Notes under the pieces: generated by a model
The model's input: the letters and a program-made list of their open reading frames with translations, nothing else
Databases searched by the model: none
What the model was told of the DNA's origin: nothing
Made by a program: the position numbers and the translations under genes
Part shown: positions 9,289 to 46,045 of the stretch, one piece after another
How the letters are laid out: each line of letters starts with the position of its first letter
Numbering within the stretch: position 1 is the first letter of the stretch
Source: an uncultured bacterium
GTDB taxonomy: Bacteria > Actinomycetota > Acidimicrobiia > Spongiisociales > UBA5794
Assembly: GCA_963801165.1 (NCBI GenBank)
Contig: CAWDDT010000005.1
Span: 320,001-384,000 of the forward strand
DNA: 64,000 nucleotides
Direction of reading: 5' to 3'

Positions 9289-9322
9289 GCGAGGACGTTT
9301 GGGTCAACTGGTTCGATCTCTC

Positions 9323-10581: not shown

Positions 10582-10609
10582 AAACCCCCGGTCTTCGGAC
10601 CGGGGGTTT
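10582..10609 (-). terminator. Terminator hairpin after bS22 gene
   Basis: Perfect 12-bp stem AAACCCCCGGTC-TTCG-GACCGGGGGTTT immediately after the stop. Confidence 0.8.
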
Positions 10610-10612
10610 ACA

Positions 10613-10702: not shown

Positions 10703-10874
10703 TTGAACCCTCGGATTTGGCGTGGCGATGAAAGGGGCCGCGGGCGAACCCGACGACTGCAGACCACCATAGGTTCGCAACTTACGCCCAAAATCGCAAG
10801 CTGGACTTGCATTCTGCCGACCAGAGGCCGGCGATCGGCATCAGATCGCGGTAGCCATCGGTCCCCTAGGTAGC

Positions 10875-11714
10875 TCAGCTCCAGCCGGTTTGGGCTACGT
10901 CTAGGACCGTGGCGATCCCTCTTTCGCCCAGGGTCTCCTTCATTGCCGCCACCACCGGCTCGGGATCGGCGGTGACCGCCAGAGCGGTAGGACCGGCGCC
11001 GCTCCAGGCGACGTGAAGCGCTCCGGCCCCACTGGCGGCTTGCATCAGCTCACCTGTGATCGGCGACAACTGCGAGCGGTACTGCTCGTGGATCTCGTCG
11101 CCACCGGCCCGCACCAGGGCTTCCGGATCACCGGTACGGAGCCCCTCGATCAGAAACGCAACCCGGGCGACGTTGCGGGCGGCGGCCTGTCTCGAGATCA
11201 TGTCGGGAAGTGCGGTCCGGGCCTGGGCCGTCTTGAGAGTCTGGTTCGGGATTCCGAACACGAAGGAGAGGTTCGGAGACAACTCGAGCCGGCGCCACAC
11301 TCCATCGGCCGCTGCCACAAGACCGCCGTAGACAGTTGCGGCGGCATTGTCCCCGTGACCCTCGATGCTTGCGACCAGCTCGTAGAGATGCTCCGACCGA
11401 GGCTCCTCCCCGACGGCGCGGAGGGCGGCTGCGGCCGCCGCCACCATCACTGCCGAGCTCGAACCGAGCCCGCGTGATCTCGGGACATCGTTCGTGATGG
11501 TGAGATGCATCGGTCTCCCCACGGCCTCGGAGACCGCGAGACGCACGAAGTCCTCCGGTTTCGGCTCGAATTCGGTGCCGAGCTCGGCGACTATCCACTC
11601 CTCGGAAGGGGTGGCAACAACCCGACAGCGCAACTCGAAGGCGAGCCCGAGACAGTCGAAACCCGGACCGAGATTGGCCGATGATCCGGGGGCGTTCGCC
11701 ATTCCGCTGTTCAT
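10875..11714 (-). CDS. thrB: Homoserine kinase
   Basis: SSANLGPGFD, PRSRGLGSSS, EGHGDN, SGAGPT; start placed at ATG 11714 (TAGAAT 7 nt upstream). Confidence 0.92.
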   Translation of the reverse strand: MNSGMANAPGSSANLGPGFDCLGLAFELRCRVVATPSEEWIVAELGTEFEPKPEDFVRLAVSEAVGRPMHLTITNDVPRSRGLGSSSAVMVAAAAAALRAVGEEPRSEHLYELVASIEGHGDNAAATVYGGLVAAADGVWRRLELSPNLSFVFGIPNQTLKTAQARTALPDMISRQAAARNVARVAFLIEGLRTGDPEALVRAGGDEIHEQYRSQLSPITGELMQAASGAGALHVAWSGAGPTALAVTADPEPVVAAMKETLGERGIATVLDVAQTGWS

Positions 11715-11807
11715 CGGGAGGATTCTAGGAGACGGTCGGTCCCCTTTAGCTATCGCTCGCCTCGACGGCCATTCCACAGCAGCCCGTGCGGTTAGCCTTG
11801 ACCAACC

Positions 11808-12698
11808 ATGACACCGGCAATCGTCCTCGATGGGCTCACCAAGTACTACGGCTCCACGCTTGGCGTCGAGGACCTCCATCTCGAGGTCAACGAGGGTGAG
11901 ATCTTCGGGTTCCTCGGGCCAAATGGTGCCGGCAAGAGCACCACGATCTCGACCATCCTCGACTTCATCCGGCCTACACGGGGCACGGCGACGGTACTTG
12001 GTTTCGACAGCAGGCGTGACAGCGTCGCCGTCCACCGTGAGATCGGATATCTGTCGGGCGAGCCGGTGCTGTACGAGAGGATGACCGGCCGCGAGCTCCT
12101 CGGCTATCTGGCGGCTCTGCGCCGTGTCGACGCCGACGCCGAGATCGCGGCACTGGCTGAACGCCTCGACCTCGACCTCGATCGCAGGATCCGGGCCTAC
12201 AGCAGCGGCAACAGACAGAAGGTCGGTCTCATCCAGGCGTTTCTGCACAGACCGCGCCTACTCATCCTCGACGAGCCCACCAATGGTCTAGACCCGATCG
12301 TCCAACACGAGTTCTATGCGCTGCTGCGTGAGGTGCGCGACGAAGGTCGCACCGTGTTTCTATCGTCACACGTCCTTCCCGAGGTCGAGCGGATCACCGA
12401 TAGGGCAGCCATCATCCGCAAGGGCAGGCTCATGGTCGTAGCCGAGATCGAAGAGCTGAAGAGACAGACGCAACGGCGGTTGGAGCTCACGTTCGCCGCA
12501 GCAGTCGATCCGGCGGTGTTCGCCGCACTCGAGACCGTCGGCGCCATTGAGGCGGGCGATCGCACAATCACAGTCACCGTCACCGGTTCGGTCGACCCTG
12601 TGGTGAAACTGGCGGCGAACTACGAGGTTGAAACCATCGTCAGCCACGAGGGCGATCTCGAGTCGGCCTTCCTCGCCTACTACACGGACGGTGATTGA
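11808..12698 (+). CDS. ABC-2 type transporter ATP-binding protein
   Basis: GPNGAGKST, YSSGNRQK, LILDEPT, SSH. Confidence 0.9.
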   Translation: MTPAIVLDGLTKYYGSTLGVEDLHLEVNEGEIFGFLGPNGAGKSTTISTILDFIRPTRGTATVLGFDSRRDSVAVHREIGYLSGEPVLYERMTGRELLGYLAALRRVDADAEIAALAERLDLDLDRRIRAYSSGNRQKVGLIQAFLHRPRLLILDEPTNGLDPIVQHEFYALLREVRDEGRTVFLSSHVLPEVERITDRAAIIRKGRLMVVAEIEELKRQTQRRLELTFAAAVDPAVFAALETVGAIEAGDRTITVTVTGSVDPVVKLAANYEVETIVSHEGDLESAFLAYYTDGD

Positions 12699-32936: not shown

Positions 32937-33767
32937 TCATTGCGGGCTCAGACTATGCGCTTCTCGTGTTGCGACGGCATCGCCGAGCGTCAAGGTCTCT
33001 CCTTGCCGGGCGACCACAGCCCAACCGGGGAGCGATCTCCCGATCTCATCGAGCTCGTCGTCTGTCCTGGCAGGGTCGTGGTGGAAGACGACGAGACGCC
33101 TGACTTCCATCGACGCGGCGAGCCGGACCGCACGCTCGACTGTCGTGTGGCCGAGGTACGCGGTCGTCGGGAATTCTGCGTCGCGATGCTGCCCGTCATG
33201 AATAAGCAGGTCAACGCCGCGGCACAGCTCGCCGACTTCCCGGGTCGGCGAGCTGTCGAAGGCGTGATCGGGCAAATACGCGATCGCCTGCCCGTCGGCC
33301 TCAACGCGGTAACCGAGCGTGAGCCCTCCCTTGTGCGGCACGGGCAGCGCCAGTATCTCGAAACCCTCGCGGCGACACAGTCTCTCTCTTGCCTCGAACT
33401 CCCACGCGCCGCGGAGACCTCCCGGTCCGATAGGGAAATGGGGTGGCCCGAGGATTTGCCGTAGAACGCTGCGGACCGGGATACCCTCGGTCGGTGCTAC
33501 CAGGGTCACCCGGGCCTCAGGGTGGTCGAGCTGGGTAGCAAACGGGATCCCATGGGTGTGGTCCCAATGCCAATGGGTCAGCAGCACCGTACCGTGGAAC
33601 GGGCGGCTTCTCTCGAGGTTGCGTAGACCCGTGCCGGCGTCGAGCAGCAGCGATGGTTCTTCCCCGTCGCGAGCGATCGCGACCGCCGCGGTATCACCGC
33701 CGTAGCGACTGAACGCGGCCCCCGTCGCCGGGAATGAGCCCCGGCAACCGAGAAGACCGACCTTCAT
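32937..33767 (-). CDS. MBL-fold metallo-hydrolase (RNase Z/phosphodiesterase-like)
   Basis: LGCRGSFP, YGGDT, LDAGTG, THWHWDHTHG, LIHDGQ, GHTT, FHHDP; ATGA overlap with upstream gene. Confidence 0.88.
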   Translation of the reverse strand: MKVGLLGCRGSFPATGAAFSRYGGDTAAVAIARDGEEPSLLLDAGTGLRNLERSRPFHGTVLLTHWHWDHTHGIPFATQLDHPEARVTLVAPTEGIPVRSVLRQILGPPHFPIGPGGLRGAWEFEARERLCRREGFEILALPVPHKGGLTLGYRVEADGQAIAYLPDHAFDSSPTREVGELCRGVDLLIHDGQHRDAEFPTTAYLGHTTVERAVRLAASMEVRRLVVFHHDPARTDDELDEIGRSLPGWAVVARQGETLTLGDAVATREAHSLSPQ

Positions 33768-34747
33768 GGGTGTTCCCGGTGGTGACCGGCAGCCACATGG
33801 CCCAATGCCTCCGGATCGAGGCGGCCCGGTCTTGCCACCGCCACCTTGACCTCCGTGGTGGCTCGGACCGTCGAGGTACGGAACCCTCTCTCGAGCGCTG
33901 CCCGCTCGCCGATGATTGCTCCCGGAGCGACTGCACCCACCACCACCCCGTCGACGGACACGTCGACCATCCCGTCGAGCAGCAAGAACACCTCGTCGGC
34001 CCGCTCGCCCTGGGTCGTCAATGCCGTGCCCGCAGGATGGGTTCTGATCTCGCACCCGCCGCTCATTATCTCGACCGAAAGCCCGCGTTCAACCGCCGTC
34101 TCGACGCCACCCACCAGCACCGGCCGATCACCCCCGCCCCACGGGGTGTGCTCGTTGTTGGTACCGGACCATGCGGAGAAGTCGATGAGCCCGCTTTTGG
34201 CAACCAACTCGCCCACCTCGTCGTAGACCCAATGCCGGGGGAACGGGGAGGCCCCAACGATCTCGTGGCTCACTGCACCATCGCGTCCGATGGTCAACGC
34301 CAGAGTCGTCCATGCGGTGGGAGCGATGATCCTGAGAAATGGCGCCTCGCTGGACCGGCGAGGAAACGGCGCTCCGGTGCGTCCACCGGCGGACTGGACG
34401 AAGCGAACACCGTTTGGTGTGATCTCGGGCTCGGCCCGCAGATCGGGGAAAGCAGTGGCCTTGACGGTCAACGCCACCGGACCGACCTTCAGCTTGGTCA
34501 CACCGATGATCCCTCCTCCGGTGTAGCCGGCGTCGCTGACCCGATCGCCATCCATCTCGACGTATGCGGACAAGCGGTTGGCGAAGCGGAAGCGGTCGGT
34601 TCGAGCCAGCTCGTCGAGATCGGTCAATCGTGCCGGTGGTGCCTCGTCGTAGTGGCCGATACCGATGTCCATGGGGATCCGCATCGGACCGCTCACGGCC
34701 TCAGACGGGATCCACGAGATCGTGGTAACCGATGCCTCGTATCTCAT
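33764..34747 (-). CDS. Cyclic-nucleotide-binding domain protein with unknown N-terminal domain
   Basis: C-terminal QGE..D.VFLLLDG...GERAALERGFRTSTVRA; RBS GGAGG before ATG 34747. Confidence 0.85.
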   Translation of the reverse strand: MRYEASVTTISWIPSEAVSGPMRIPMDIGIGHYDEAPPARLTDLDELARTDRFRFANRLSAYVEMDGDRVSDAGYTGGGIIGVTKLKVGPVALTVKATAFPDLRAEPEITPNGVRFVQSAGGRTGAPFPRRSSEAPFLRIIAPTAWTTLALTIGRDGAVSHEIVGASPFPRHWVYDEVGELVAKSGLIDFSAWSGTNNEHTPWGGGDRPVLVGGVETAVERGLSVEIMSGGCEIRTHPAGTALTTQGERADEVFLLLDGMVDVSVDGVVVGAVAPGAIIGERAALERGFRTSTVRATTEVKVAVARPGRLDPEALGHVAAGHHREHP

Positions 34748-34767
34748 TGCACCTCCAGATCCTCCTC

Positions 34768-34809
34768 CGATCGCAGTTCCTCGCGCGATCGCAATTCCTC
34801 CGGCGATCG
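34768..34809. repeat. 18-bp periodic repeat upstream of cNMP-binding gene
   Basis: CGATCGCAGTTCCTC (34768), CGATCGCAATTCCTC (34786), CGATCG (34804). Confidence 0.7.
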
Positions 34810-34855
34810 TCGAGCACATGGCCCTTTGCCGTAACCGTGGTGGCCACAAGAGGAG

Positions 34856-34873
34856 GGTGTGGGATTCCTCACC
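34856..34873. promoter_or_regulatory. Putative response-regulator operator GGTGTGG-N4-CCTCACC
   Basis: Near-palindrome in the divergent promoter region, matching 44066-44083. Confidence 0.55.
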
Positions 34874-34955
34874 ATTCGATTCGAGGTGCCACGGTTCCCG
34901 CGCCCCGGCGGCGTCGGCATGGTGAGGAGGTGTCGAGTAGTCGAAGGAGGTTTTC

Positions 34956-35744
34956 ATGGCACATGCGATTGAAGCAACAGCCGAATCGTCGATCCGGTCC
35001 CTGGTCACGCGCATCGCCGCCGGATTGATCGCGATGTTGGTTCTGGTCGGTCTCGGGTCGGCACCTGCGCTCATCGCCGGGTTCACCGACAGATCGGACG
35101 TTCATGCGTTTCACGGGTTTGAGTGGGGTACGCTGGCGGGTGTTCTGTTCGGTGGTTCGCTGCTCATCGTCGCAGTGAGCGCCGACCACTCGCAGGCTGC
35201 CGTGCGGGCGGCGCTGGCAATCGGCGTCACCTTCCTGGTGGTGGCCGTACTGGCCCGGGTCGTAGGACCCGACACGTTGAGCCCGCTGGTGCTGGCAACT
35301 GTCGTCGCGCTGCTCGGCGGTCTTCCTCTTCTCGCCGGGAACTGGCGGCCCCGCTCGCTCCCCCTCGCTCTGATGTCGCTGGCAGCGTTCGTCGCAGGGG
35401 TGATCAACGCCGCTGTCGAGATCGGCTTCCAACTGGACCGTGTCGATGTGCACTCCGCCGAGCTCCACTACGCCGGCTCCGCTGTGGTCCTTCTGGCCAT
35501 CCCCATCGTCGCATACATCGTGGCGACTCTGCCTGACGGCTACCGGCCGGTGACGTGGCTGGTCGGCTCTGCGGCGACCCTGCTTGGTCTGGGATCGTTG
35601 CTGATCCAGCGCACCGGTGCTTTTGCGGCACTACCTGCCGTGCTCATGATCGTGTGGGGGGTGGCGTTCGTCGCCATCGCCCACTCCGTGCATACGAACG
35701 CCGCGGCCGCTGCCGCCGGCTGGGGGGAGTCCCACAATGCATGA
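34956..35744 (+). CDS. Hypothetical multi-TM protein with His motifs
   Basis: RBS AAGGAGG; about 8 TM segments; HAFH and HSAELH. Confidence 0.75.
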   Translation: MAHAIEATAESSIRSLVTRIAAGLIAMLVLVGLGSAPALIAGFTDRSDVHAFHGFEWGTLAGVLFGGSLLIVAVSADHSQAAVRAALAIGVTFLVVAVLARVVGPDTLSPLVLATVVALLGGLPLLAGNWRPRSLPLALMSLAAFVAGVINAAVEIGFQLDRVDVHSAELHYAGSAVVLLAIPIVAYIVATLPDGYRPVTWLVGSAATLLGLGSLLIQRTGAFAALPAVLMIVWGVAFVAIAHSVHTNAAAAAAGWGESHNA

Positions 35745-36186
35745 ATTGCTCGTAGTCATCCACGTAATCGCCGCCATGGCGTGGGTCGGTGGAGGTCTTT
35801 ACTCGACGGTGATGTCACAGAAGGCGCTCAGCACCGGTGAGGGATTCGACTTTGTCGCCGCCCAAGCAGAACGCGCTGGTACTCGTCTATTCGCCCCGGC
35901 TTCCGTCCTGGTATTGCTGAGCGGGATCTCGATCGTGCTCACCACCGAATCGTGGCGATTCGGGCAGACATTTGTATGGTCCAGCCTCATACTCGCCGCC
36001 GTTTCATTCATCATCGGAGGCGCGTTCTACGGCCCCACCTGGAAGAAAGTCCGCCATCTCCAGCTCGAGAAGCCCGATAGCCCACAGCTCGTGGCGCTGC
36101 GCCGTCGGGTCATGAGCGTGACCCGGCTCGACACGGCGATCCTGGTCACCGTCGTCGTGCTGATGGTGACCAAGCCGGGGCTGTGA
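35737..36186 (+). CDS. DUF2269-like membrane protein
   Basis: HVIAAMAWVGG N-terminus, LMVTKP C-terminus, 4 TM segments. Confidence 0.75.
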   Translation: MHELLVVIHVIAAMAWVGGGLYSTVMSQKALSTGEGFDFVAAQAERAGTRLFAPASVLVLLSGISIVLTTESWRFGQTFVWSSLILAAVSFIIGGAFYGPTWKKVRHLQLEKPDSPQLVALRRRVMSVTRLDTAILVTVVVLMVTKPGL

Positions 36187-37499
36187 CCATGACCGAGTCG
36201 ATCTCCGTGTTCCTCGCCGACGACAATCTCCTCGTCAGAGAAGGCGTGAGGACGCTGATCGACATGGCTGGAGACTTCGAGATCGTCGGCATGGCCGGTG
36301 ACTTCGACGACCTCGTCGCCGGGGCTACCGCGACCGCGCCGCAGGTGGTGGTGACCGACATCCGTATGCCACCGGACTTCCGGCGGGAGGGCATCGAGGC
36401 GGCCAAGCTGATCCGCAGGCTGCATCCGGGAACCGGGGTCGTCGTGCTCAGCCAGTACGACGACCCCGAGTATGCCGTTTCTCTCCTCTCCGAGGGTGCC
36501 GCCGGTTATGCCTACCTGCTCAAGGACCGCGTTGCCGAGGGGGACCAACTCGCCCGCGCCATCCGTGAGGTGGCAGCGGGGGGATCACTTATCGACCCCA
36601 CCATCGTTGCCGCGCTCACCCGACCGGTGCAACCTGCTGCCGGGCTGGATCCGGAGAGCGAGCGTCTGCTCCATCTGATTGCCGAGGGCACCCCGGTGAA
36701 GGCGATCGCTCTCGCCATCGGCGCTCCCCCGGCCGATGTGGACCGTCGCATCGAGAAGCTGTTCGTGAGTCTGGCCGAGGATGTCTCCACGGGAAGCCTC
36801 GCCGCCATCGACCGTCTCAAGCTTCTCCACCGCGCCATCGTCGACCGAAAGGAGCAGGGCGAAGTGCTGTCGCGGTTGCTGCCAGGCGGTTTGGCGGACA
36901 AACTACGCAACGAGGGAAGAGCCATCGGCGAGACGGAGGAACTGGAGGTGACGGTGCTGATGTCCGACGTACGGGGATACACCACCATCGCCGAGCGCAC
37001 CCACCCCACCGTTCTCGCCGGCCAGCTCAACCGGCATCGTGCCGAGATGAACCGGGCGATCCTCGATCATGGCGGCACCGTCATGCAGTTCGTTGGAGAC
37101 GCCGTGATGGGCGTGTTCGGCGCACCCGATTCGATCCCCGACCACGCCGATTGTGCCCTGGCGGCTGCCCATGCCATGCATGCGGGCCAGCGCTCGGTCA
37201 ACCAGAACTGGCAGGCTGAAGGCCTCGAGCCTTTCGGCCTCGGGATCGGGCTCTCCTCCGGGATGGTCGCCGCCGCGCTCCTCGGCTCCGAGGAGCGAGT
37301 CGAATACAGCGTTGTCGGCGACATCGTGAACCTGACCCAACGGCTGCAGCAATGGGCCGAGCCGGGAGAAACGGTCCTCAGTGAGCCGACCTGGCGTCTG
37401 CTCGCCGGCCGACCCGACGCCGATGAGCTGGAACCGGCCACCGTCAAGGGTCGAGCCGCACCGGTGCGCGCATTTCGGGTTCCCAGGAGGGCCCGATGA
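36183..37499 (+). CDS. Receiver - degenerate LuxR HTH - class III nucleotide cyclase fusion
   Basis: LADD..VTDIRMPP..LSQY..YLLK; SDVRGYT, QFVGD, GIGL, YSVVGDIVNLTQRL; start may be ATG 36189. Confidence 0.9.
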   Translation: MTMTESISVFLADDNLLVREGVRTLIDMAGDFEIVGMAGDFDDLVAGATATAPQVVVTDIRMPPDFRREGIEAAKLIRRLHPGTGVVVLSQYDDPEYAVSLLSEGAAGYAYLLKDRVAEGDQLARAIREVAAGGSLIDPTIVAALTRPVQPAAGLDPESERLLHLIAEGTPVKAIALAIGAPPADVDRRIEKLFVSLAEDVSTGSLAAIDRLKLLHRAIVDRKEQGEVLSRLLPGGLADKLRNEGRAIGETEELEVTVLMSDVRGYTTIAERTHPTVLAGQLNRHRAEMNRAILDHGGTVMQFVGDAVMGVFGAPDSIPDHADCALAAAHAMHAGQRSVNQNWQAEGLEPFGLGIGLSSGMVAAALLGSEERVEYSVVGDIVNLTQRLQQWAEPGETVLSEPTWRLLAGRPDADELEPATVKGRAAPVRAFRVPRRAR

Positions 37500-39538
37500 T
37501 CGACAGACCTCGTGTCGCCGTAGCGCGGACCATGGCGGTCTTCAGCGTCGCCTCTGCAGCCGTAGGACTCGGCTGGCTGGTCGTCATCGGAGACGGCGGT
37601 GCGGCGTGGCACGACTGGATCGTCCACAGCGCGGTCGTCGCCATCTGCGCCGGCGTGATCACATGGCTCGTCGCCCCATCTCAGCCTCGCAACGGCGCCA
37701 TCTGGGTATTGGCATGGGCGGGTCTGCTCACCGGTTTCGAGACCCTCTCCTATGCCGTCGTGGTGGAATTACAACGGATACACGGGATAGGAGGTTCGGC
37801 CCTTGACCTCGTGCCGGCCGACGTTCCCGTCTCGATGGCGCTGGTCATGCAGCAGACGAACTGGCTCTGGATCGGGGTGCTGCTGACTCTGACGTTGCTC
37901 CCGCTGTTTCCCGATGGGCATCTGCCGTCTGCCAAGTGGCGACCCGTAGTGGCGGCGCAGCTCTTCCTCATTGGTATAACCTCGCTGGGTCTCTTCTGGG
38001 AGGCGCGACCGTCGGGAACATTCGCCCTGCGTCAGACTCAGGATCTCGCCGGTGGCTTCCGCAGCGTCTCTGCCGCCTTTGTGACACTCGGCTACCCGCT
38101 CATCTTCGCCGCCGGCATCGCCGGGGTACCAGCTCTGCTGGTTCGCTACCGACACAGCACTGCGGAGGAACGCCAGCAGTTCCGGTGGGTGGCCTGGGGC
38201 GCATCGTTTCTCGGAGTCTCGCTGGTCGTCGCTCTCCTCGGAGCTGAGGTAGCGGGCCGGCTCGATGTCGCCCTCATAGCCGCGGCGATTGCCCTGGCCG
38301 CCTTCCTTGCTTCCCTTGGCATCGCCATCGGCAGGTACAGGCTCTACGACGTCGACGTCCTCATCTCGCGGTCGTTCGTGTTCGGGACGCTGGCGCTTTT
38401 CATCACGGGCGCTTACGTCGGGGTCGTCGTCGGGGTGGGAGCACTGCTCAACCTGGATCAGTCCAGCGCGGGGCTCGAGATCGTGGCCACCGCCCTGGTG
38501 GCTATCGCGTTCCAGCCGCTGCGCCGCAGGCTGCAACGCATCGCAAACCGGATCGCGTTCGGGAAACGAGCCACTCCCTATGAGGTCCTCTCGGAGTTCT
38601 CCCGCAGAGTCGCCGCGGCAGACGAGACTGCGCTGGCCGACATAGCCAGATCGCTCGTGGAAGGGACCAGTGCCACCCAGGCCGCGGTGTGGGTGGGCCG
38701 GCCCGGGAACCGGCACGCCGCCGCCAGCTGGCCGGATGCGGCCGTCGCCGAGGTGACGCTGGAGCGACCCATAGTCCACGGCGGTGAGGAGCTCGGAGCG
38801 GTGACACTGACCGCGGCTCGCGGTCTCCGGCCGGGGCCGGCCGATGCGCAATTGCTCGAGGAGGTCGCCGCCGGACTGGGGCTGGTGCTGCGAAACCTCC
38901 GGTTGAGCGACACCCTGCAGGATCGGATCGACGAGCTTCGCGCCTCGCGGCGCCGTATTGTGGCCGTGCGCGATCAGACGAGGCGCACTCTGGAGCGGGA
39001 CCTCCACGACGGCGCTCAGCAGCAACTCGTCGCCATCAAGGTGAAGCTCGGGCTCGCTCGCCAGCTGGCGGCGAAATCAGGCGCCACCGAGACAGCACAG
39101 CTCGTCGAGTCCATCGCGGCCGGAACCAATGACGCCATCGATGCTATGCGCGACTTTGCTCGCGGCATCTATCCGCCCTTGCTCGAGGCGGAAGGGCTGG
39201 CGGCGGCCCTGTCGGCGCAGATCCGAAAGCTGCAGCTCGAGGTCTCTCTGGTGGCCGATGGTTTCGGACGCAGGCGCAGCGACGTCGAGTCGACGCTGTA
39301 CTTCTGCGCCGTCGACCTGCTGACGAGTGCCAGACAAGGTGGTGCTCAGGTCCAGTTGCGCCTCGTCGCCGACGGCGAGACGGCCGGCTTCGAGCTAACC
39401 CACCCCGATGGCATGTGGTGGAATGCGTCCACCCTGACCGATCTCGCCGACCGTATCGACGCCGCAGGAGGCTCTTTTCTCGTCGATCAGACAGGCACCG
39501 GTGCCGTCGAGGTTGCGATTCCGGAGGTGGTCGGATGA
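37496..39538 (+). CDS. Membrane HisKA_3 sensor kinase: intact H-box, degenerate ATPase domain
   Basis: Multi-TM, GAF-like region, ERDLHDGAQQ; N, G1 and G2 boxes read DLLTSARQG, THPDGMW, ASTL. Confidence 0.85.
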   Translation: MIDRPRVAVARTMAVFSVASAAVGLGWLVVIGDGGAAWHDWIVHSAVVAICAGVITWLVAPSQPRNGAIWVLAWAGLLTGFETLSYAVVVELQRIHGIGGSALDLVPADVPVSMALVMQQTNWLWIGVLLTLTLLPLFPDGHLPSAKWRPVVAAQLFLIGITSLGLFWEARPSGTFALRQTQDLAGGFRSVSAAFVTLGYPLIFAAGIAGVPALLVRYRHSTAEERQQFRWVAWGASFLGVSLVVALLGAEVAGRLDVALIAAAIALAAFLASLGIAIGRYRLYDVDVLISRSFVFGTLALFITGAYVGVVVGVGALLNLDQSSAGLEIVATALVAIAFQPLRRRLQRIANRIAFGKRATPYEVLSEFSRRVAAADETALADIARSLVEGTSATQAAVWVGRPGNRHAAASWPDAAVAEVTLERPIVHGGEELGAVTLTAARGLRPGPADAQLLEEVAAGLGLVLRNLRLSDTLQDRIDELRASRRRIVAVRDQTRRTLERDLHDGAQQQLVAIKVKLGLARQLAAKSGATETAQLVESIAAGTNDAIDAMRDFARGIYPPLLEAEGLAAALSAQIRKLQLEVSLVADGFGRRRSDVESTLYFCAVDLLTSARQGGAQVQLRLVADGETAGFELTHPDGMWWNASTLTDLADRIDAAGGSFLVDQTGTGAVEVAIPEVVG

Positions 39539-41577
39539 AGCGCCTGACGTGGATCGCGACGGCCACCATCGTCATCGCCAGCGTTGCGGCCGGGCTTCTC
39601 TGGAGCGACGGGACCCCGCTGCGTTCGCCATGGATGCTGCCCGCGGCGACCATGACGATCGTCGGGGCAGTGCTCACGTCGAGGGTCCCGGGCAACCCCA
39701 TCGGTCCTCTGTGCCTGTGGTTCGGTCTCGGTGCCGGTGCCACCGCGATCGTTCCTTACAGCCTCCCCTTCTCGTCTGAGAATCAGGCAGCGTGGGCAGA
39801 AGGAATAGGTAGCCTCCTCAACACAGCCTTGGTCGTGCTCACTCTGATCCCCCTCGTGATGCGTTTCCCCGACGGCCATCTGCTCGACCGTCGCTGGCGC
39901 CATGTCGAGCGGGTTGCCGTGCTGGCCGCACTACTCGGTGGGATGGCCGCCCTGATCAACAACGGTTGGGGCGGAGCGCTCGATCAGGCCGTTCGCCAGT
40001 CACCATTGCGCCCGGCATTCGGCGGATTCGCCGACACGGTCGTACCGGTCTTCTATGCGATCCTGAGCCTTCTATTCGCCATCGCCGCTCTGGCCGTGGT
40101 TCTCCGTTTTCGCCGCGCCGACGGTGACGAGCGCGAGCAATTGCGATGGCTCATGTCTGCGGCGGTGATCCTGGTCGTGGCCATCGTCGTCGCCGGACTC
40201 GGCGGCGCCAGCTCGAATGTCGATGCACTCGTGGTAGGTGGGGCGATGTCCCTCGTGCCGGTCGCCATCGCAGTTGCGGTGTTGCGCTACCGGCTCTACG
40301 ACCTCGACCTCGTCATCTCACGCACCCTCCTGTTCGGAATGCTTGTCGTCTTCATCACCGGCGTGTACGCCATTGTCGTTGTCGGGTTGGGGTCGCTTGT
40401 CGGGGGACAGAGGAATCTCGTCCTCTCGATCGGCTCGACCGCTCTTGTGGCGGTTCTCTTCGAGCCGGTTCGCACCAGAACCCAGCGTTGGGCCAACCGG
40501 CTGGTCTTTGGGCGGAAGGCGACCCCATATGAGGTATTGGCCGACCTGACGACCCGGCTGGCCGCGGCCGAGTCATACGAGGGCCTGCTCGAACGGATGG
40601 CGGCGCGCCTGGCAGATGGCATTGGGGCGGCACGCGCAGCAGTCTGGGTCGCCGAGGATGGCGGCTACCGGGCTCTTGCCGCCCATCCGCCGCTTGCGAC
40701 ACGGGAGGTTCTCGCATCGACCATCCCGGGTTGGGTCGTACCGATAGAGCACGACGAAGACACCGTGGGCGTGCTCAGTGTCGAGACCCGGCGAGGCGAG
40801 ATGCTGAGCCCTACCGAGCGCCGCCTCACTGAGGATCTGGCCGGCTCGGCTGGACTCGTCCTCAACAAAGCGAGGCTCGATGCGGCACTGGCGGCAAGGG
40901 CCGCCGATCTGGCGGAGTCGCGACGCCGTCTCGTCGGGGCTGAGGACGCCGAGCGCCGCCACCACGAACAGATTCTCGAAGGCGGGGTGCAGCAGCAACT
41001 GGTCGCCATCAAGCTGCGGCTCGGGATGGCCTCCAGGACCGCGATCGAGGAAGGGGCCGATGCGGTCGGGCAACTACTTCAGGGGATAACCGGTGACGCG
41101 CAGGCCGCTATCGACCAGGTGCGAACGCTGGCCCGAGGCATCTTCCCCCCGCTGCTCGAGACCGAGGGCCTCCGGGCGGCGCTCATCGCGGCCATCGAGC
41201 AGGCTCCGGTCGAGGCTCGGGCCAACATCGACGATGTGGACAGGTTGCCCCGGGATATCGAGGGTGCCGTGTACTTCACCATGTTGGAGGCGATCACCAA
41301 CGCGGTCAAACACGCCGTCGGCCCGATCCACGTGGATCTTCATCGCCGCAAAGACGTTATCGAGTTTGCCGTGGCGGACACCGGCCCCGGTTTCGACCCC
41401 GCGCTCGCTTCGCCCGGTTCGGGCATGGCCAACCTCGCCGACCGGGTCGAGACCGCGGGAGGTGTGTTGCGCATCGAAGCCGCCCCGGGATCACCAACGG
41501 TGATCGCCGGGCGGATCCCCGTCGCCGAGACCACACATATCGCGGCGGCCTCGTACCAGGCCACGGCTCTTGAGTAG
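39535..41577 (+). CDS. Membrane HisKA_3-like sensor kinase: no phospho-His, intact ATPase domain
   Basis: H-box reads EQILEGGVQQ; EAITNAVKHA, DTGPGF, GSGM intact; RBS GGAGG and ATGA overlap. Confidence 0.85.
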   Translation: MKRLTWIATATIVIASVAAGLLWSDGTPLRSPWMLPAATMTIVGAVLTSRVPGNPIGPLCLWFGLGAGATAIVPYSLPFSSENQAAWAEGIGSLLNTALVVLTLIPLVMRFPDGHLLDRRWRHVERVAVLAALLGGMAALINNGWGGALDQAVRQSPLRPAFGGFADTVVPVFYAILSLLFAIAALAVVLRFRRADGDEREQLRWLMSAAVILVVAIVVAGLGGASSNVDALVVGGAMSLVPVAIAVAVLRYRLYDLDLVISRTLLFGMLVVFITGVYAIVVVGLGSLVGGQRNLVLSIGSTALVAVLFEPVRTRTQRWANRLVFGRKATPYEVLADLTTRLAAAESYEGLLERMAARLADGIGAARAAVWVAEDGGYRALAAHPPLATREVLASTIPGWVVPIEHDEDTVGVLSVETRRGEMLSPTERRLTEDLAGSAGLVLNKARLDAALAARAADLAESRRRLVGAEDAERRHHEQILEGGVQQQLVAIKLRLGMASRTAIEEGADAVGQLLQGITGDAQAAIDQVRTLARGIFPPLLETEGLRAALIAAIEQAPVEARANIDDVDRLPRDIEGAVYFTMLEAITNAVKHAVGPIHVDLHRRKDVIEFAVADTGPGFDPALASPGSGMANLADRVETAGGVLRIEAAPGSPTVIAGRIPVAETTHIAAASYQATALE

Positions 41578-41606
41578 GCTTCCCGGTTAGTCACCCTGGG
41601 AATCCG

Positions 41607-42323
41607 ATGAGCACCCACGACAAGCACGTAGTAGCCGAAGAGCCCGCGACCGGGGCCAATGCCACCTCCGAGAGTGAGGAGATGTTCCTCATCACGGTGG
41701 CGCGGGCCATCGAAGACGGACATCCCAGCCCGGTGCCGGTTCCGCTCCTCGCCGACAAGCTGTCCATATCGCGGGTGTCGGCAAACGAGATGACCAAGAA
41801 GCTGGTTGGTAGGGGCTTTGTCGAGTACGAGCCCTATCGCGGGGTCACGCTCACCGCTACGGGAACCGCCGTAGCCAACCGGGTCCTGCGCCGCCGCAGG
41901 CTCTGGGCACTGTTTCTCGCCGAGCATCTTGGTCTGTCCCCTACGGCGGCCGACACCGTTGCCTGCGAGTTCGAGCACATCACGCCGGCGGAGGTAGCCA
42001 CCCGTCTTGCGGGCTTTCTCGGCGACCCTTCGGTCGATCCCGAAGGCAAACCGATACCGGCCGCCGGCAGCTCGATGGGCAACGGCCCGCTCGATCTGGC
42101 TCTTGCCGACCTCGGGGTGGGTCGTCAGAGCGTGGTCACCCGCATCGCCGCTGATTCGGCGATCCGCTCGTTTCTCGAGGATGAGGGAATAGCCGAAGGA
42201 ACCGTGATCACCCTCCTGGCCGTTGGCTCGGACCATGGTTGTCTGGTCGATGGCGGCAACGGCCACGTGCATATGTCGGCCGGGGTTGCAGCCCACGTGC
42301 TCGTCGCTCCGGTGGCCAACTGA
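41607..42323 (+). CDS. DtxR/MntR-family metal-dependent regulator with FeoA domain
   Basis: SANEMTKKL, YEPYRGVTLT, RRRRLWALFL, ACEFEH, DPEGKPIP. Confidence 0.88.
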   Translation: MSTHDKHVVAEEPATGANATSESEEMFLITVARAIEDGHPSPVPVPLLADKLSISRVSANEMTKKLVGRGFVEYEPYRGVTLTATGTAVANRVLRRRRLWALFLAEHLGLSPTAADTVACEFEHITPAEVATRLAGFLGDPSVDPEGKPIPAAGSSMGNGPLDLALADLGVGRQSVVTRIAADSAIRSFLEDEGIAEGTVITLLAVGSDHGCLVDGGNGHVHMSAGVAAHVLVAPVAN

Positions 42324-42331
42324 CCCTCGAC

Positions 42332-42371
42332 TTGACAACATCTCCACCCCGCCTAGATTAGGGCGCCTTAA
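42332..42371 (+). promoter_or_regulatory. Sigma-A promoter with overlapping DtxR-family box
   Basis: TTGACA(42332)-N16-TAGATT(42354); near-palindrome TTAGGGCGCCTTAA at 42358-42371. Confidence 0.75.
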
Positions 42372-42407
42372 ACAATCGTGTAAGTGTGAGTTAATAACCG
42401 GGTAGGC

Positions 42408-43265
42408 ATGTTCTCCAACTTCCTGATCGGCCTCCGCGAAGGTCTCGAGGCGGTCCTCGTCGTCAGCATCCTGGTTGCGTACCTCGTCAAATCGGGCCGG
42501 GGCGACCAACTGACACGCGTCTGGACCGGAGCAGGTATCGCCGTCGCCGTTTCCCTCGCGACCGGCGCCCTCCTCACCTTCGGCCCGCGCGGTCTGACCT
42601 TCGAAGCCCAGGAGGCCATCGGTGGGTTTCTGTCGCTCCTTGCAGTCGGCTTCATCACGTGGATGATCTTCTGGATGGCCCGGACCGCCCGCAATCTGAA
42701 GGGCGAACTCGAGGAGCAAGCCGGCCTGGCCATCAGTGCCGGCAAATGGGGACTCGTGCTGGTGGCGGCACTGGCCGTCGGTAGGGAGGGTCTGGAGACT
42801 GCTCTGTTCCTATGGACCGCTACTAAGGCGGCGGGGTCCACGCTCGAACCCCTGGTGGGTGCTTTCTTCGGCCTGGCCACTGCGGTAATCCTCGGGCTGC
42901 TCATACACCGTGGTGCGGTGCGGATAGATCTGCGGCGGTTCTTCTCGGTAACCGGAGCCCTGCTGATCATCGTCGCTGCCGGTGTGCTGTCCTACGGGAT
43001 CCACGACCTGCAAGAAGCGGGAATACTCCCCGGTCTCGGTGCGGTGGCGTTCGATGTCTCTGGCGCGATTCCACCGTCGTCGTGGTACGGCACGCTGCTC
43101 AAGGGAACGATCAACTTCTCGCCCCGGTCCACATGGCTCGAGACGGTCACCTGGCTGGCCTACACCATCCCGGTGCTCACCGCATTCATCCGCAAGGTGC
43201 GCCCAACACGACCGGTGCCGGGACGATCTGCCGTGCCGGCGGCGACCTCAGGAGCCGCCCGATGA
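42408..43265 (+). CDS. efeU: FTR1-family iron permease
   Basis: Two REGLE motifs, HDLQEAG. Confidence 0.92.
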   Translation: MFSNFLIGLREGLEAVLVVSILVAYLVKSGRGDQLTRVWTGAGIAVAVSLATGALLTFGPRGLTFEAQEAIGGFLSLLAVGFITWMIFWMARTARNLKGELEEQAGLAISAGKWGLVLVAALAVGREGLETALFLWTATKAAGSTLEPLVGAFFGLATAVILGLLIHRGAVRIDLRRFFSVTGALLIIVAAGVLSYGIHDLQEAGILPGLGAVAFDVSGAIPPSSWYGTLLKGTINFSPRSTWLETVTWLAYTIPVLTAFIRKVRPTRPVPGRSAVPAATSGAAR

Positions 43266-43630
43266 CGCGTCGCACCCTGCTCGCTGCCCTCGCCGTCATG
43301 TCCCTTGCGGTGAGTGGTTGCACCAGCAACGGCGACGCGACCACCACCGTCGAGGTGGTCAGCACCGATAAGGAGTGCCGGGTCGCCGCGACGCAAGCAC
43401 CGGTGGGAACGATCACCTTCGATGTGCGCAATGATGGCAACGACGTAACGGAGTTCTACCTGTATGACGAAGATGGTGCGAAGGTGGTCGGTGAGGTGGA
43501 GAACATCGGCCCCGGCGTCACTCGATCGATGGTCGTCGAAGCGGTGGTGGGCTCCTATGAGACCGCATGCAAGCCGGGGATGGCCGGAGACGGGATAAGA
43601 GCCGCGTTCGAGGTGGTGGACACCGGGTGA
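43262..43630 (+). CDS. Cupredoxin-like lipoprotein (EfeO N-terminal domain only)
   Basis: Lipobox VSGC, VTEFY, GEVENIGPG, ACKPGM; stops at 122 aa. Confidence 0.8.
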   Translation: MTRRTLLAALAVMSLAVSGCTSNGDATTTVEVVSTDKECRVAATQAPVGTITFDVRNDGNDVTEFYLYDEDGAKVVGEVENIGPGVTRSMVVEAVVGSYETACKPGMAGDGIRAAFEVVDTG

Positions 43631-43642
43631 CATCTGGCCGGG

Positions 43643-44008
43643 TCAGTCGAATATGAGGCTCCACGGGCCAAACTCGGCTTTCGACACAAAGCCGACCGCC
43701 CCGGCCTCGAGAGCGCGCGACTCGTACTCGGCGCTTTCATAAGTCGAGACCACGAGCACCGCAATATCGGGAAACTCGCTGACGATGCGTCTGGTTGCCT
43801 CGAGCCCGTCGATGCCGGGCAGGTTTATGTCCATCAGAACCAGGTCGGGGGCCGTAGCCGCGATCTTGTCGAGCGCCTCTTCAGCCGAGCCCGCCTCGCC
43901 GGCGAACTCAACTCCGTCCGCCAGCTCGACGACGAGTGCCGCCGCCTGACGGAAGGGAGCCTGGTCATCTACGATCAGGACTCGACGCACCTGCTGATCC
44001 AACTTCAT
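43643..44008 (-). CDS. Single-domain response regulator
   Basis: LIVDD, LMDINLPG, VST, FVSK; no output domain. Confidence 0.85.
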   Translation of the reverse strand: MKLDQQVRRVLIVDDQAPFRQAAALVVELADGVEFAGEAGSAEEALDKIAATAPDLVLMDINLPGIDGLEATRRIVSEFPDIAVLVVSTYESAEYESRALEAGAVGFVSKAEFGPWSLIFD

Positions 44009-44043
44009 ACCCCCATTGTCATCCAAGCCCGGCGGCTCACCAA

Positions 44044-44084
44044 GGGCACAGGCACCACACCGGCCGGTGTGGTTTTCCACACCG
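44044..44084. promoter_or_regulatory. Tandem putative response-regulator operators
   Basis: CGGTGTGG-TTTT-CCACACCG (44065-44084) plus a degenerate copy 22 bp away ending CCACACC (44055-44061). Confidence 0.55.
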
Positions 44085-44087
44085 CTG

Positions 44088-44750
44088 TCACGTCGTCTCG
44101 CCCAGAAATAGAAGCACCGCCTTGACCCGCCGGTTGCCGTCGACGTTTGCTAGTAGATCGAGCTTGGTGAAGATCGAGTTGATGTGCTTCTCCACTGCCC
44201 GCTCCGAGAGGAATAGATCGGCGGCGATGCCGGCATTGGTGCCGCCGGCGGCGACGTGCTCGAGCACTTCCCGCTCCCGGCCCGTCAGCCGTTCCAACTT
44301 GGAACGGCGTCCGGCACTCCGTCCCGCCAGCAACGCGTCGACGACCTTCGGGTCGATCCTCGAACCACCAACCGCAACCCGCTCGATGGCGTCCACCAGC
44401 TCGTTCGCATCACCGAGGCGCTCCTTGAGCAGGTAGGCGAAACCGGAAGACCCGTCCTCCAGCAGGCGGATCGCATACTCCGGCTCGACGTACTGACTCA
44501 GCACGACAACACCGATGTCGGGGTGCAGAGCCCGAATCTCCCGCGCCGCCTTGATGCCCTCGTCGGTACGGCTCGGCGGCATCCTGATGTCGGTAACGAC
44601 AACGTCAGGATGGTGCATCTCGACCGCTTCCAGCAGCTCGTAGTAATTCTCGGCAGTAGCCAGCAGCTCGTACCCGGCGCTTTCCAGCACCAGCTTCTCC
44701 CCCTCGCGTACGATGTAGCTGTCTTCGGCGAGCACCAGCTTGAGACCCAT
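44088..44750 (-). CDS. NarL/LuxR-family DNA-binding response regulator
   Basis: LAEDS, VTDIRMPP, LTGREREVL, LFLSERAVEKHINSIFTKL. Confidence 0.93.
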   Translation of the reverse strand: MGLKLVLAEDSYIVREGEKLVLESAGYELLATAENYYELLEAVEMHHPDVVVTDIRMPPSRTDEGIKAAREIRALHPDIGVVVLSQYVEPEYAIRLLEDGSSGFAYLLKERLGDANELVDAIERVAVGGSRIDPKVVDALLAGRSAGRRSKLERLTGREREVLEHVAAGGTNAGIAADLFLSERAVEKHINSIFTKLDLLANVDGNRRVKAVLLFLGETT

Positions 44751-44815
44751 CAGGTCACACTACACAACGGGCGGTCCGCCCGAAGTGGTTAAGGGAGCGC
44801 CTAGTCTTGCTCGCC

Positions 44816-45346
44816 ATGGCCGTACACATCGCGCTACTACGCGGAATCAACGTCGGTGGCAAGAACCGGCTGGCGATGTCACTGCTGCGCACGATCGCCT
44901 CCGACCTCGGCTACACCGACGTTGTCACGTACATACAGAGCGGGAACATCGTGCTGACGAGCCGTGAGGCGAGCCGCACGGTCGCCGGGAAACTCGAAGG
45001 CGCCATTACCGCGACGACCGGTCTCGACGTCCCTGTGATTGCCCGTACGGCCGCGGAATGGTCCACGATGATGGCGGCGAACCCGTTTCCCGTCGCCGAC
45101 GGCAAGAAGCTGCACGTTGTGTTCCTGCCCGGTCCGGCGGGCGACGCATATAGCCGAATCGATTCAGCCGCCCACGGGCCCGAGGACTTCTCCGTCTCGG
45201 GCAGCCACGTCTTCCTGTGGCTCCCCAACGGGATCGGGCGCAGCAAGCTGGCGGCGGCGATCGGCAGGGCCGGTCAACCCGGTACGGCCCGCAACTGGAA
45301 CACCGTGGTGAAGCTGGCGCAGCTGAGCGGCGCCGAGCAACCGTAG
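44816..45346 (+). CDS. DUF1697 family protein
   Basis: ALLRGINVGG, TYIQSGN, TARNWNTV. Confidence 0.88.
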   Translation: MAVHIALLRGINVGGKNRLAMSLLRTIASDLGYTDVVTYIQSGNIVLTSREASRTVAGKLEGAITATTGLDVPVIARTAAEWSTMMAANPFPVADGKKLHVVFLPGPAGDAYSRIDSAAHGPEDFSVSGSHVFLWLPNGIGRSKLAAAIGRAGQPGTARNWNTVVKLAQLSGAEQP

Positions 45347-45466
45347 GTCGTTGCCAAGCCGCACGCCGTCGGGTGTGGCTTGCTCTCTCTCGGTGGGCTT
45401 CGAGTTCACGAAATGTTCCCCGGCAACCCGGCAACAAGCCGGGTGTTGCCTGCCAGGATGCCAACC

Positions 45467-46045
45467 ATGAAAGCCATCACGATGCTCTTGACCGCGCTGC
45501 TGCTAGCCGCATGCGGTAGCTCGAGCGATCAGCACGCGGCCACTGCCACCCCCACCGACGTACAGACACGACTCGACGAGATATCCGGCTACGTCACAGA
45601 CTGGCAACAAGCCGGTGACCTGGCCGCAGCGACCAGCGCAGCCGAGGCCGCCGCCAACCTGGTGGTTGGCCCCAACGGACCCGGTTATGGCGACCGCAAC
45701 GGGGACGGCGAGATCAGTGGAGCCGGCGATGTAGGCCTACTCCCCGGTAGCGACGGCACCCCGACCGGTCTGGTGCTCGACGTCATAGGCGACGTCGAGT
45801 GTGTCCACCAGGACGTTCTCGGTGGCGCGTGGGACGACCCTGCAGCAAGGTGGGGCGAGCTGGCAGCGGCGATCGCAGACTGGGCAGCCGACAACAACAC
45901 ATTCCCGTCGCTGGCGGCGCATCCCATGCGTCTCGTCGGCTGGGCAACCCTGACCCAGACCGCCACTCTCGACGAAGCCCACCAGTACGCAGGCCACGCC
46001 GCGCTCCATGTGAGCGTGGCCGAACAGGCGCTCGCCAACTGCTGA
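45467..46045 (+). CDS. Hypothetical lipoprotein
   Basis: Signal peptide with LAAC lipobox; DRNGDGEIS EF-hand-like loop. Confidence 0.65.
   Translation: MKAITMLLTALLLAACGSSSDQHAATATPTDVQTRLDEISGYVTDWQQAGDLAAATSAAEAAANLVVGPNGPGYGDRNGDGEISGAGDVGLLPGSDGTPTGLVLDVIGDVECVHQDVLGGAWDDPAARWGELAAAIADWAADNNTFPSLAAHPMRLVGWATLTQTATLDEAHQYAGHAALHVSVAEQALANC

Follow-up and report, generated by a model that had tools for sequence, protein, structure and literature searches.

How can two adjacent, full-length sensor kinases transmit a signal if each has lost the catalytic part that the other has kept? This question is raised by HK1 and HK2, two genes in a 64,000-nucleotide stretch of DNA from an uncultured member of the Acidimicrobiia (assembly GCA_963801165.1, contig CAWDDT010000005.1, positions 320,001 to 384,000; hereafter the window, meaning the whole stretch that was analysed). 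The source is a metagenome bin of 4.55 Mb in 13 contigs, with an estimated contamination of 5.6%. A preliminary description of the window had proposed that the two kinases carry exactly complementary defects and form an obligate heterodimer that detects the coincidence of two inputs. We find that the defects are reciprocal and recur as pairs in related loci, and that they probably reflect a mixed complex in which HK2 would phosphorylate HK1 in trans.

Reciprocal losses in two coupled kinase genes

Both kinases are encoded by uninterrupted open reading frames (ORFs) of 680 codons which, as the preliminary description had it, overlap by ATGA (39535-39538). Since the receiver-cyclase gene upstream is coupled to HK1 in the same manner (37496-37499), the unit comprises three genes; a GGAGG-type ribosome-binding site lies before each overlap, and a promoter and terminator scan found nothing inside the operon that exceeded shuffled sequences. 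HK1 and HK2 are paralogues with 35% identity over their full length, each with about seven hydrophobic segments. In the AlphaFold models of both (mean predicted local distance difference test score, pLDDT, of 83.2 for HK1 and 82.4 for HK2), a helical membrane domain and a small GAF-like domain of alpha/beta fold are followed by a long dimerisation and histidine phosphotransfer (DHp) hairpin and a C-terminal alpha/beta domain. The multi-helix membrane sensor expected of each protein was thus borne out, while the expected GAF-like region is seen in both models but is weakly supported by sequence, the GAF_2 matches falling below the cut-off (E = 0.013 for HK1 and E = 5e-5 for HK2).

In HK1 the membrane sensor (residues ~1-355) is followed by the GAF-like domain (378-440), the DHp domain (448-558) and a domain resembling the catalytic and ATP-binding (CA) domain (561-676). 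The H-box is intact (ERDLHDGAQQQ), with His504 standing before a DxxxQ motif that runs from Asp505 to Gln509, and Pfam HisKA_3 matches at 44.7 bits (cut-off 24), as befits a HisKA_3 DHp domain with both the His and its acidic neighbour. All 24 of the 24 first-position kinases compared share LHDGAQQ unchanged. No HATPase profile of Pfam matches HK1, and the N, G1 and G2 boxes are missing: in the alignment with relatives Asp607 and Ser611 occupy the N-box positions of Glu and Asn, DxGxG is absent, and the lid, shortened by ~7 residues, lacks GxG. With the HK1 model as query, the best structural matches in Foldseek were structures of DesKC, the cytoplasmic part of DesK. The model also matched isolated CA domains, that of VraS (4gt8) with a TM-score of 0.70 and a root-mean-square deviation of 2.5 Å over 125 columns, and that of DesK (3ehg) with a TM-score of 0.64, indicating that the fold has been kept even though the ATP-binding ligands are gone.

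HK2, with its membrane sensor (~1-344), GAF-like (351-417), DHp (426-533) and CA (539-662) domains, shows the converse state. In its H-box region (EQILEGGVQQQ) Glu482-Gly483 replaces His-Asp, a replacement that from CAC to GAA requires two base changes, and HisKA_3 matches at 23.4 bits, below the cut-off of 24, with no acceptor His. The CA domain matches HATPase_c at 30.3 bits (cut-off 26.4) as well as HATPase_c_2, and all ATP-binding motifs are present, E585, N589, K592 and H593, D615-x-G617-x-G619 and G628-x-G630 being invariant in alignment A5. The motif assignments of the preliminary description, down to the His codon at 39005 and the Glu codon at 40978, proved right in every detail checked. 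It had also named the HH of ERRHHE, whose two His residues precede Glu482 by five and six positions, as a site on which HK2 could conceivably autophosphorylate alone. We rejected these residues as an alternative acceptor because they are not conserved among HK2 orthologues: P0124 retains one of the two, and P0125 and P0126 have neither. Partners from related loci with Asp at the acceptor position (Asp-type partners) carry H, N or R at other positions near the site.

The phosphatase motif, DxxxQ, is also unequally shared, its Asp being lost in HK2 and the Asp-type partners and kept in HK1. Since HK1 alone keeps both DxxxQ and the His, both catalytic roles of the DHp domain fall to HK1. Judged by sequence, neither protein is by itself a complete HisKA_3 (NarL-type) kinase, and the pair jointly holds every sequence feature of one. 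As in a split kinase, acceptor site and ATP binding reside on separate, co-encoded polypeptides, but here neither polypeptide is a fragment, both being full-length with all domains present as folds.

Conservation, pairing and origin of the reciprocal pattern

The preliminary description had set recurrence in orthologous pairs as a check, and the pattern does recur. We searched 5.8 billion proteins with HK1, using precomputed domain labels and then reading the motif states from the sequences. The HK1 orthologues P0004 (99% identity), P0005 (71%), P0006 (57%) and P0007 (55%) match HisKA_3 only and combine the His with dead CA motifs, while the next matches, P0008-P0023 (46-51%), carry HisKA_3 plus HATPase_c, with CA motifs that on reading proved intact in P0008, P0010 and P0012. 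The search with HK2 gave the orthologues P0124 (79%), P0125 (72%) and P0126 (55%), in which Leu-Glu-Gly-Gly-Val-Gln-Gln goes with N, G1 and G2 boxes that are all intact; at the acceptor position of P0127 (52%) there is Asp, and the further relatives P0128, P0129 and P0134 (44-45%) have the His and are intact. The longest contig has the same size for P0005 and P0125 (15777) and for P0007 and P0126 (17808), as it has for the intact pairs P0012/P0129 (60269) and P0010/P0134 (27591); for the two reciprocal pairs this equality is a hint, not proof, that their members are neighbours.

A metagenome scan with HK1 returned one relevant locus, L140, which is 99.2% identical to the window and has the same motif states. 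Across 8895 bases (window 36641-45535) there are 70 differences, 58 of them within the two kinase genes. HK1 has 12 synonymous and 8 non-synonymous changes, and its dead CA domain accounts for 6 of these 8. In HK2 there are 26 synonymous base changes and 12 non-synonymous ones, nearly all of which fall in its sensor half. The differences thus cluster in the C-terminal third of HK1 and the sensor half of HK2, with 0-5 in each of six neighbouring genes, and the clusters could be recombination tracts or the result of locally relaxed or diversifying selection.

To place the pair among its wider relatives we combined two genome searches. A search of 61 genomes of the same order, that of the window included, with HK2 gave a match at E <= 1e-30 in 27, and a scan of 185,579 species genomes with a receiver-cyclase alignment gave 599 candidate stretches, 596 of which encode a relative and the best 80 of which were kept. 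Together these yielded about 100 loci, many of them from metagenome bins, in which a core module has been kept: a divergent gene for a protein that binds cyclic nucleotide monophosphates (cNMPs), the receiver-cyclase, at least one seven-transmembrane-GAF-HisKA_3 kinase, and a convergent single receiver and NarL-type regulator. The class counts that follow are not independent trials, because the proteins are related to each other. The 90 distinct full-length kinases of these loci comprise 48 with the His and an intact CA domain, 15 with the His and a dead CA domain, 3 with the His and a partly dead CA domain, and 24 without the His (Asp in 14, Ala in 4, Asn in 3, and Glu, Gly and Arg in 1 each), all 24 of which retain at least four of the five scored ATP-motif positions. 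Likewise, the 366 database homologues with a readable CA domain comprise 267 intact, 76 His-less but CA-intact (D 29, N 18, R 14, Q 7, E 5, S 2, G 1), 12 with the His and a dead CA domain and 11 partly dead. No kinase lacking both parts was found, either among the 24 His-less of the 90 locus kinases or among the 76 His-less of the 366 database homologues.

The two defective classes occur together. After removal of four duplicate loci, the next gene after a full-length CA-dead sensor kinase, wherever it could be read, encoded a His-less, CA-intact paralogue in 16 of 16 cases (the window, L086, L077, L044, L045, L082, L047, L048, L070, L076, L081, two in L089, L094, L098 and L110). Loci at contig ends (L053, L056, L067, L101 and L052) and those with frame-split kinases (L092, L111, L132 and L135) were left out of this count. 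In five loci an intact kinase stands beside a His-less, CA-intact one (L040 and L041, Asn; L091, Gly; L118, Ala; L126, Arg), while a CA-dead kinase beside a fully intact one was not seen among the loci examined. The presence of the one intermediate and the absence of the other suggest an order of events that fits trans-phosphorylation. The identity of the domain that decays is the strongest indirect argument. Were phosphorylation in cis, the CA domain of the His-less partner would be useless and would be expected to decay, yet this domain is kept in every case, and decay has instead struck the His-bearing partner, whose CA domain would have no target within a mixed dimer that phosphorylates in trans.

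Some loci depart from the simple tandem pair. Two reciprocal pairs flank a single cyclase in L089 (2992-13590), and one dead-CA kinase is followed by two Asp-type partners in L045 (3067-9636). L100 (3871-9358) has two tandem His-to-Ala kinases and then a third, cut kinase, and L126 (9684-17294) has four tandem kinases, the final one with His changed to Arg.

We assessed selection on the degenerate parts from Nei-Gojobori ratios of non-synonymous to synonymous divergence (dN/dS) between moderately diverged orthologues. The ratios, which are rough because several dS values exceed 1, were 0.05-0.15 for the His-bearing DHp domain, 0.06-0.15 for the His-less DHp domain, 0.12-0.48 for the intact CA domain and 0.25-0.38 for the dead one, and the less saturated pairs (L081/L067, L082/L081 and L070/L076) agreed. 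With dN/dS below 1 in every domain, the degenerate domains are relaxed yet, on this sequence measure, under purifying selection. The preliminary description had argued for selection over decay or sequencing error, and these ratios, the conservation of the states and the second strain in the same state all uphold it.

Did the split arise once? In the receiver-cyclase tree the window falls in a clade of 11 rows (SH-aLRT 90) whose other members have an intact first kinase wherever it is visible (L040, L041, L049, L062, L064 and L065), and loci with Asp-type pairs fall in other receiver-cyclase clades (99). For the kinases we built trees on sensor columns only, leaving out those of the DHp and CA domains, in which the trait itself resides. 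In a quick tree of this kind HK1 groups with six intact first-position kinases (95). Two results spoke for a single origin or left it standing. First, an approximately unbiased (AU) test in treekit on 67 sensor-only rows did not reject a single dead-CA clade (p = 0.965); the unconstrained quick tree scored 50 log-likelihood (lnL) units below the tree in which this clade was enforced, which showed that the quick search was poor, and full IQ-TREE searches were then run. Second, a 40-taxon IQ-TREE analysis favoured a separate origin by 29.6 lnL units, a non-significant difference (AU p = 0.079).

The final kinase tree (44 taxa, 376 columns, LG+F+G4) included 12 added closer relatives that break the long branches of the window's proteins. 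In this tree HK1, P0005, P0006 and P0007 (98.5) join the intact P0008, P0010, P0012 and P0014 (99.7), and HK2, P0125, P0126 and P0127 (95.1) join one kinase of L091 and the intact P0129 and P0134 (99.7). When the dead-CA kinases of the window lineage were constrained to group with six dead-CA kinases of the other lineage, the cost was 82 lnL units (AU p = 0.0002), a rejection that was obtained only with the added close relatives and for a group named after the trees had been seen, and that is further qualified by the model used and by the metagenome bins from which the data come. With a single origin of the dead-CA state rejected, we take the reciprocal split to have arisen convergently. A third origin is likely in L089, where the members of the second pair are each other's closest relatives (99). 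In a full-length tree the dead-CA protein of the window groups with the His-less proteins of the other lineage (95) and the His-less protein of the window with the other dead-CA proteins (89). The latter grouping is kept in sensor-only trees (93.7) and the former is poorly resolved, so our claim is one of independent origin and not of a strict swap of roles.

The distribution of acceptor-site residues adds a further detail. A genome of the same genus as that of the window (G013; L043/L077) has an Asp-type and not a Glu-type pair. The Glu and Asp versions therefore do not simply follow the species tree, which points to paralogous loci or horizontal transfer.

The receiver-cyclase and its neighbourhood

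The features of the locus are collected in Table 1. The receiver-cyclase matches Pfam Response_reg at 54.6 bits and Guanylate_cyc at 72.4 bits, is always first in the operon and, among the best 80 loci, is better conserved (63-73% identity) than the kinases (about 36-50%). Residues D13, D14, D59, S90, K114, D262, D306, N383 and R387 are invariant in 14 receiver-cyclases; we take D13 and D14 to be the acidic pocket and D59 the acceptor of a receiver that also includes S90 and K114, and the remaining two Asp, Asn and Arg to belong to the cyclase. By its Pfam matches and invariant residues the upstream gene encodes a receiver-regulated class III nucleotide cyclase. In class III cyclases a pair of residues specifies the substrate, Lys/Asp for ATP and Glu/Cys for GTP. 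The receiver-cyclase has the seemingly non-canonical Gln302 and Ser376 at these positions, where 13 relatives aligned with it likewise show Gln, replaced in two by Thr or Met, and Ser or Thr, so that the product, whether cAMP, cGMP or another nucleotide, is not predictable from sequence.

Table 1. Features of the kinase module, numbered from the first base of the window
Feature	Position	Strand	Evidence
Receiver-cyclase (receiver domain, degenerate linker, Guanylate_cyc), 438 aa	36183..37499	+	Pfam
HK1, 680 aa	37496..39538	+	ORF, Pfam, alignment, model
HK1 His504 codon CAC, predicted phospho-acceptor of the pair	39005..39007	+	
HK1 degenerate CA-like domain	39176..39523	+	Alignment; no HATPase match; fold kept
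HK2, 680 aa	39535..41577	+	ORF, Pfam, alignment, model
HK2 Glu482 codon GAA at the phospho-acceptor position	40978..40980	+	
HK2 ATP-binding motifs (N-box, G1, G2)	41287..41424	+	Alignment
Single-domain receiver, conserved convergent partner of the module	43643..44080	-	Pfam Response_reg, 85.7 bits
NarL/LuxR-type response regulator (receiver domain and GerE), conserved convergent partner	44088..44750	-	Pfam; kept position
Protein with C-terminal cNMP-binding domain; start codon unsettled	33764..35086	-	Pfam cNMP_binding, 49.2 bits
Metallo-beta-lactamase (MBL)-fold protein (Lactamase_B_2), divergent upstream of the receiver-cyclase	32937-34055	-	

Homologues of the cNMP-binding protein, whose N-terminal ~340 residues have no Pfam match, adjoin the cyclase in 75 of the loci examined, and the MBL-fold protein does so in 35. 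From this arrangement, the cyclase, the cNMP-binding protein and the MBL-fold protein look like a complete cyclic-nucleotide circuit, with a maker, a reader and perhaps a breaker. The receiver-cyclase is likely to be the cognate output of the kinases, and the cNMP-binding neighbour is likely to be the effector of its product.

In most related loci the single-domain receiver lies directly 3' of the second kinase. In the window two groups of genes are inserted into the module, two membrane-protein genes, one of them DUF2269 (34956-36186), and a cluster of a DtxR-like repressor, an FTR1 iron permease and a cupredoxin-like lipoprotein (41607-43630). The inserted genes have no homologue in the other loci examined, and the module is otherwise compact.

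The same genome holds a second copy of the module (L143, G000:C1:3000-19000; 8776-12499), with a cNMP-binding protein, a receiver-cyclase (70% identity), a NarL-type regulator and a single receiver. These genes enclose no kinase gene; an intact HisKA_3 kinase is encoded 4 kb from the cyclase, behind an FtsX/MacB permease gene. The same locus has a 631-residue ORF (1827-3722, minus strand) that matches Pfam MATCAP, a microtubule-associated tyrosine carboxypeptidase family, at E = 3.4e-88, which is unexpected in a bacterium.

Proposed signalling by the pair, competing explanations and known systems

We propose that HK1 and HK2 would signal only jointly, as a mixed complex, in its simplest form a heterodimer in which HK1 and HK2 share one four-helix bundle of their DHp domains. 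HK2 would contribute the sole working CA domain and HK1 the sole phospho-acceptor, His504, together with the sole DxxxQ. The CA domain of HK2 would phosphorylate His504 in trans, and phosphorylated HK1 would in turn hand the phosphoryl group to the receiver-cyclase of the same operon and, probably, to both of the convergent receivers that are conserved in the module. Phosphotransfer would set the production of a cyclic nucleotide, to be read by the neighbouring cNMP-binding protein. We give the heterodimer with trans-phosphorylation a probability of roughly 0.6. Complementation as the reason for the reciprocal pattern is well supported by the comparisons above; physical association, trans-phosphorylation, the cognate regulator and a cyclase product are predictions from the same sequences.

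A predicted complex of the two DHp-CA halves lends the pairing weak support. Its ipSAE was 0.58, while the highest-scoring of three controls had 0.00. Of 80 solved complexes 58 reach the mark, as do 2 of 110 mismatched pairs, but the range up to 0.60 holds only 7 of the 80 solved complexes along with both passing mismatches; runs agreed in at least 96% of contacts, and the pLDDT of the partner was at least 78.

The coincidence detection put forward in the preliminary description is a separate matter, as the data can be explained without AND logic: if a pair that was heteromeric from the start had degenerated reciprocally and neutrally, the same sequences would result. A fuller reading can be formulated, in which an obligate, asymmetric two-sensor heterodimer has evolved repeatedly as tandem paralogues degenerated reciprocally, the acidic residue at the dead His site (Glu in HK2, Asp in the other lineage) mimics the phosphorylated state and so fixes the asymmetry, and output in the form of cyclic nucleotide synthesis needs permissive signals from both sensors. 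We offer it tentatively, as a possibility with the balance somewhat against it. Because the dead site is in other kinases occupied by Asn, Arg, Gln, Ser, Gly or Ala, the phosphomimic idea cannot be general.

Several observations weigh against the trans-phosphorylating heterodimer. The complex score cannot separate a heterodimer from homodimers, and the pass may reflect the likeness of the pair to solved kinase homodimers. DosS is said to be capable of autophosphorylation without an ATP lid, although HK1 additionally lacks the Asn and Asp ligands. In 3 of the 16 pairs (L047, L048 and L094) one partner is spread over two reading frames. At three loci, whose cyclases form one clade (100), sensor-less proteins of ~200 residues with a His-bearing DHp domain and a degenerate CA domain are encoded directly 3' of the cyclase (L085 9299-9913, L119 6073-6675 and L137 8611-9408, all on the plus strand), with no ATP-competent kinase nearby. 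Here a protein with the His and a dead CA domain apparently works without an adjacent CA donor, for example as a phosphotransferase or phosphatase. Finally, the intact HisKA_3 kinase near the second module, judged by its sequence, could be an alternative source of phosphoryl groups.

The last two points lend weight to the main competing explanation, a phosphorelay or phosphatase module. Spo0B and ChpT are soluble, sensor-less proteins with a DHp His and a CA-like domain that does not bind ATP, and they are fed by receiver domains. HK1 would be their counterpart, moving phosphoryl groups among the three receivers of the module or removing them, with input from another kinase or from acetyl phosphate, and HK2 would be an ATP-binding pseudokinase that modulates HK1 or the regulators. 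HK1 does share with Spo0B and ChpT the His and a CA-like domain stripped of its ATP-binding residues, it has kept the DxxxQ phosphatase motif, all three receiver proteins have been kept in the module, and the genome holds an intact related kinase elsewhere; the short proteins of L085, L119 and L137 may themselves be Spo0B/ChpT-like phosphotransferases derived from this kinase family. HK1, however, is not a soluble, sensor-less protein but one of 680 residues, with a membrane sensor of ~355 residues and a GAF-like domain, encoded beside a CA-intact paralogue. Moreover, a phosphorelay leaves unexplained why ATP motifs are retained in the His-less kinases (24 in the loci and 76 in the databases), why pairing is found in 16 of 16 cases and why loss of the His in one partner always precedes decay of the CA domain in the other. 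We consider this explanation unlikely.

A still less probable explanation is that the two proteins form separate homodimers, HK1 as a signal-controlled phosphatase and HK2 as an ATPase or as a kinase with an unusual target residue or substrate, such as the HH or a Ser/Thr of another protein. The best Pfam match of HK2 is indeed HATPase_c_2, the anti-sigma-factor type, but this profile is also listed for many fully intact relatives; the two His residues near Glu482, which would suit such a kinase, are not conserved, and strict co-occurrence and translational coupling are left unexplained. Decay, a sequencing or assembly artefact, or chance is hardly credible in spite of the bin's contamination estimate and the frame breaks in some related loci, given two ORFs open for 680 codons, the same states in a second strain and in orthologues down to 55% identity, dN/dS below 1 throughout and a His-to-Glu replacement of two base changes.

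How does the trans-phosphorylating heterodimer relate to what is known? Histidine kinases are usually treated as homodimers, in which trans-phosphorylation has been shown with engineered mutants, and natural hetero-oligomers are mainly regulators, as in RetS-GacS, or truncated split kinases. In EnvZ/Taz1, NtrB and others, a mutant of the His site and a mutant of the ATP domain reportedly complement each other, the classic proof of trans-autophosphorylation. As in the window pair, the acceptor His is missing from one subunit and ATP binding from the other; in these experiments only the mixed dimer is reported to be active. The window pair therefore looks, by analogy, like a natural version of the experiment, with the difference that the engineered subunits are laboratory mutants of one protein, whereas HK1 and HK2 are diverged paralogues (35% identity) with their own sensors and conserved defects.

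Division of the two functions between natural proteins has precedents. Rv0600c and Rv0601c of Mycobacterium tuberculosis are said to divide ATP binding and the acceptor over two proteins. Split kinases have been described in CheA3/CheA4 of Rhodobacter sphaeroides (PMC3591291) and Hik36/Hik43 of Synechocystis (PMC7656254), and Rv0600c/Rv0601c-TcrA is a system of two kinases and one regulator (PMC3544749). All three share with the window pair the need for two polypeptides to cooperate for ATP binding and acceptor, but they consist of truncated or soluble pieces that lack the other domain, whereas the window pair is full-length, with a degenerate copy under purifying selection.

A second comparison is with DesK, the Bacillus subtilis kinase that serves as structural prototype for HisKA_3 and belongs to the same H-box family as HK1. 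An H188E mutant of DesK is phosphomimetic and its dimer is asymmetric, with one CA domain contacting helix alpha1 of the other protomer (PMC5231405). HK2 naturally has Glu at the position of His188, where the other lineage has Asp. DesK is a homodimer with both functions on each chain and an engineered H188E, whereas in the window the functions are divided and the Glu is natural. It is an attractive extension, by analogy, that the dead protomer might be held in a phosphorylated-like conformation.

Other multikinase systems resemble the pair in part. AbrC1 and AbrC2 of Streptomyces coelicolor are two kinases that serve one regulator, AbrC3, and each autophosphorylates on its canonical His (PMC4428217). 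Like the window pair they are actinobacterial paralogous kinases encoded in one cluster, but they lack reciprocal defects. DivL is said to be a kinase-like protein acting through contact with a true kinase, and its structure (PDB 4q20) was among the Foldseek matches of the HK1 model. RetS is a pseudokinase partner of GacS within a multikinase network (PMC12189002 and PMC8498467). In both systems a kinase-like protein that cannot signal by itself acts through contact on a partner that is fully competent and is only regulated by it, whereas neither member of the window pair would be competent alone.

We found no report of a natural reciprocal pair of full-length kinases in the open-access and bioRxiv literature, subscription journals and supplements lying outside the search. 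Trans-phosphorylation and split function are already known, and what appears not to be known is a natural, full-length, two-sensor, repeatedly evolved and cyclase-coupled form.

If the heterodimer is real, it would provide natural evidence for a kinase heterodimer as the functional unit and for trans autophosphorylation in the HisKA_3 family, and it would show that half-of-sites asymmetry can be genetically fixed. The evolutionary series seen across the loci, from both kinases intact, through loss of one His, to loss of the other's ATP domain, would be a model for the way in which duplicated homomers become obligate heteromers. The pair would also be a simple system in which to ask about two-input logic within a single bacterial kinase. 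Through the receiver-controlled cyclase and the cNMP-binding neighbour, the module would join two-component and cyclic-nucleotide signalling in uncultured Acidimicrobiia.

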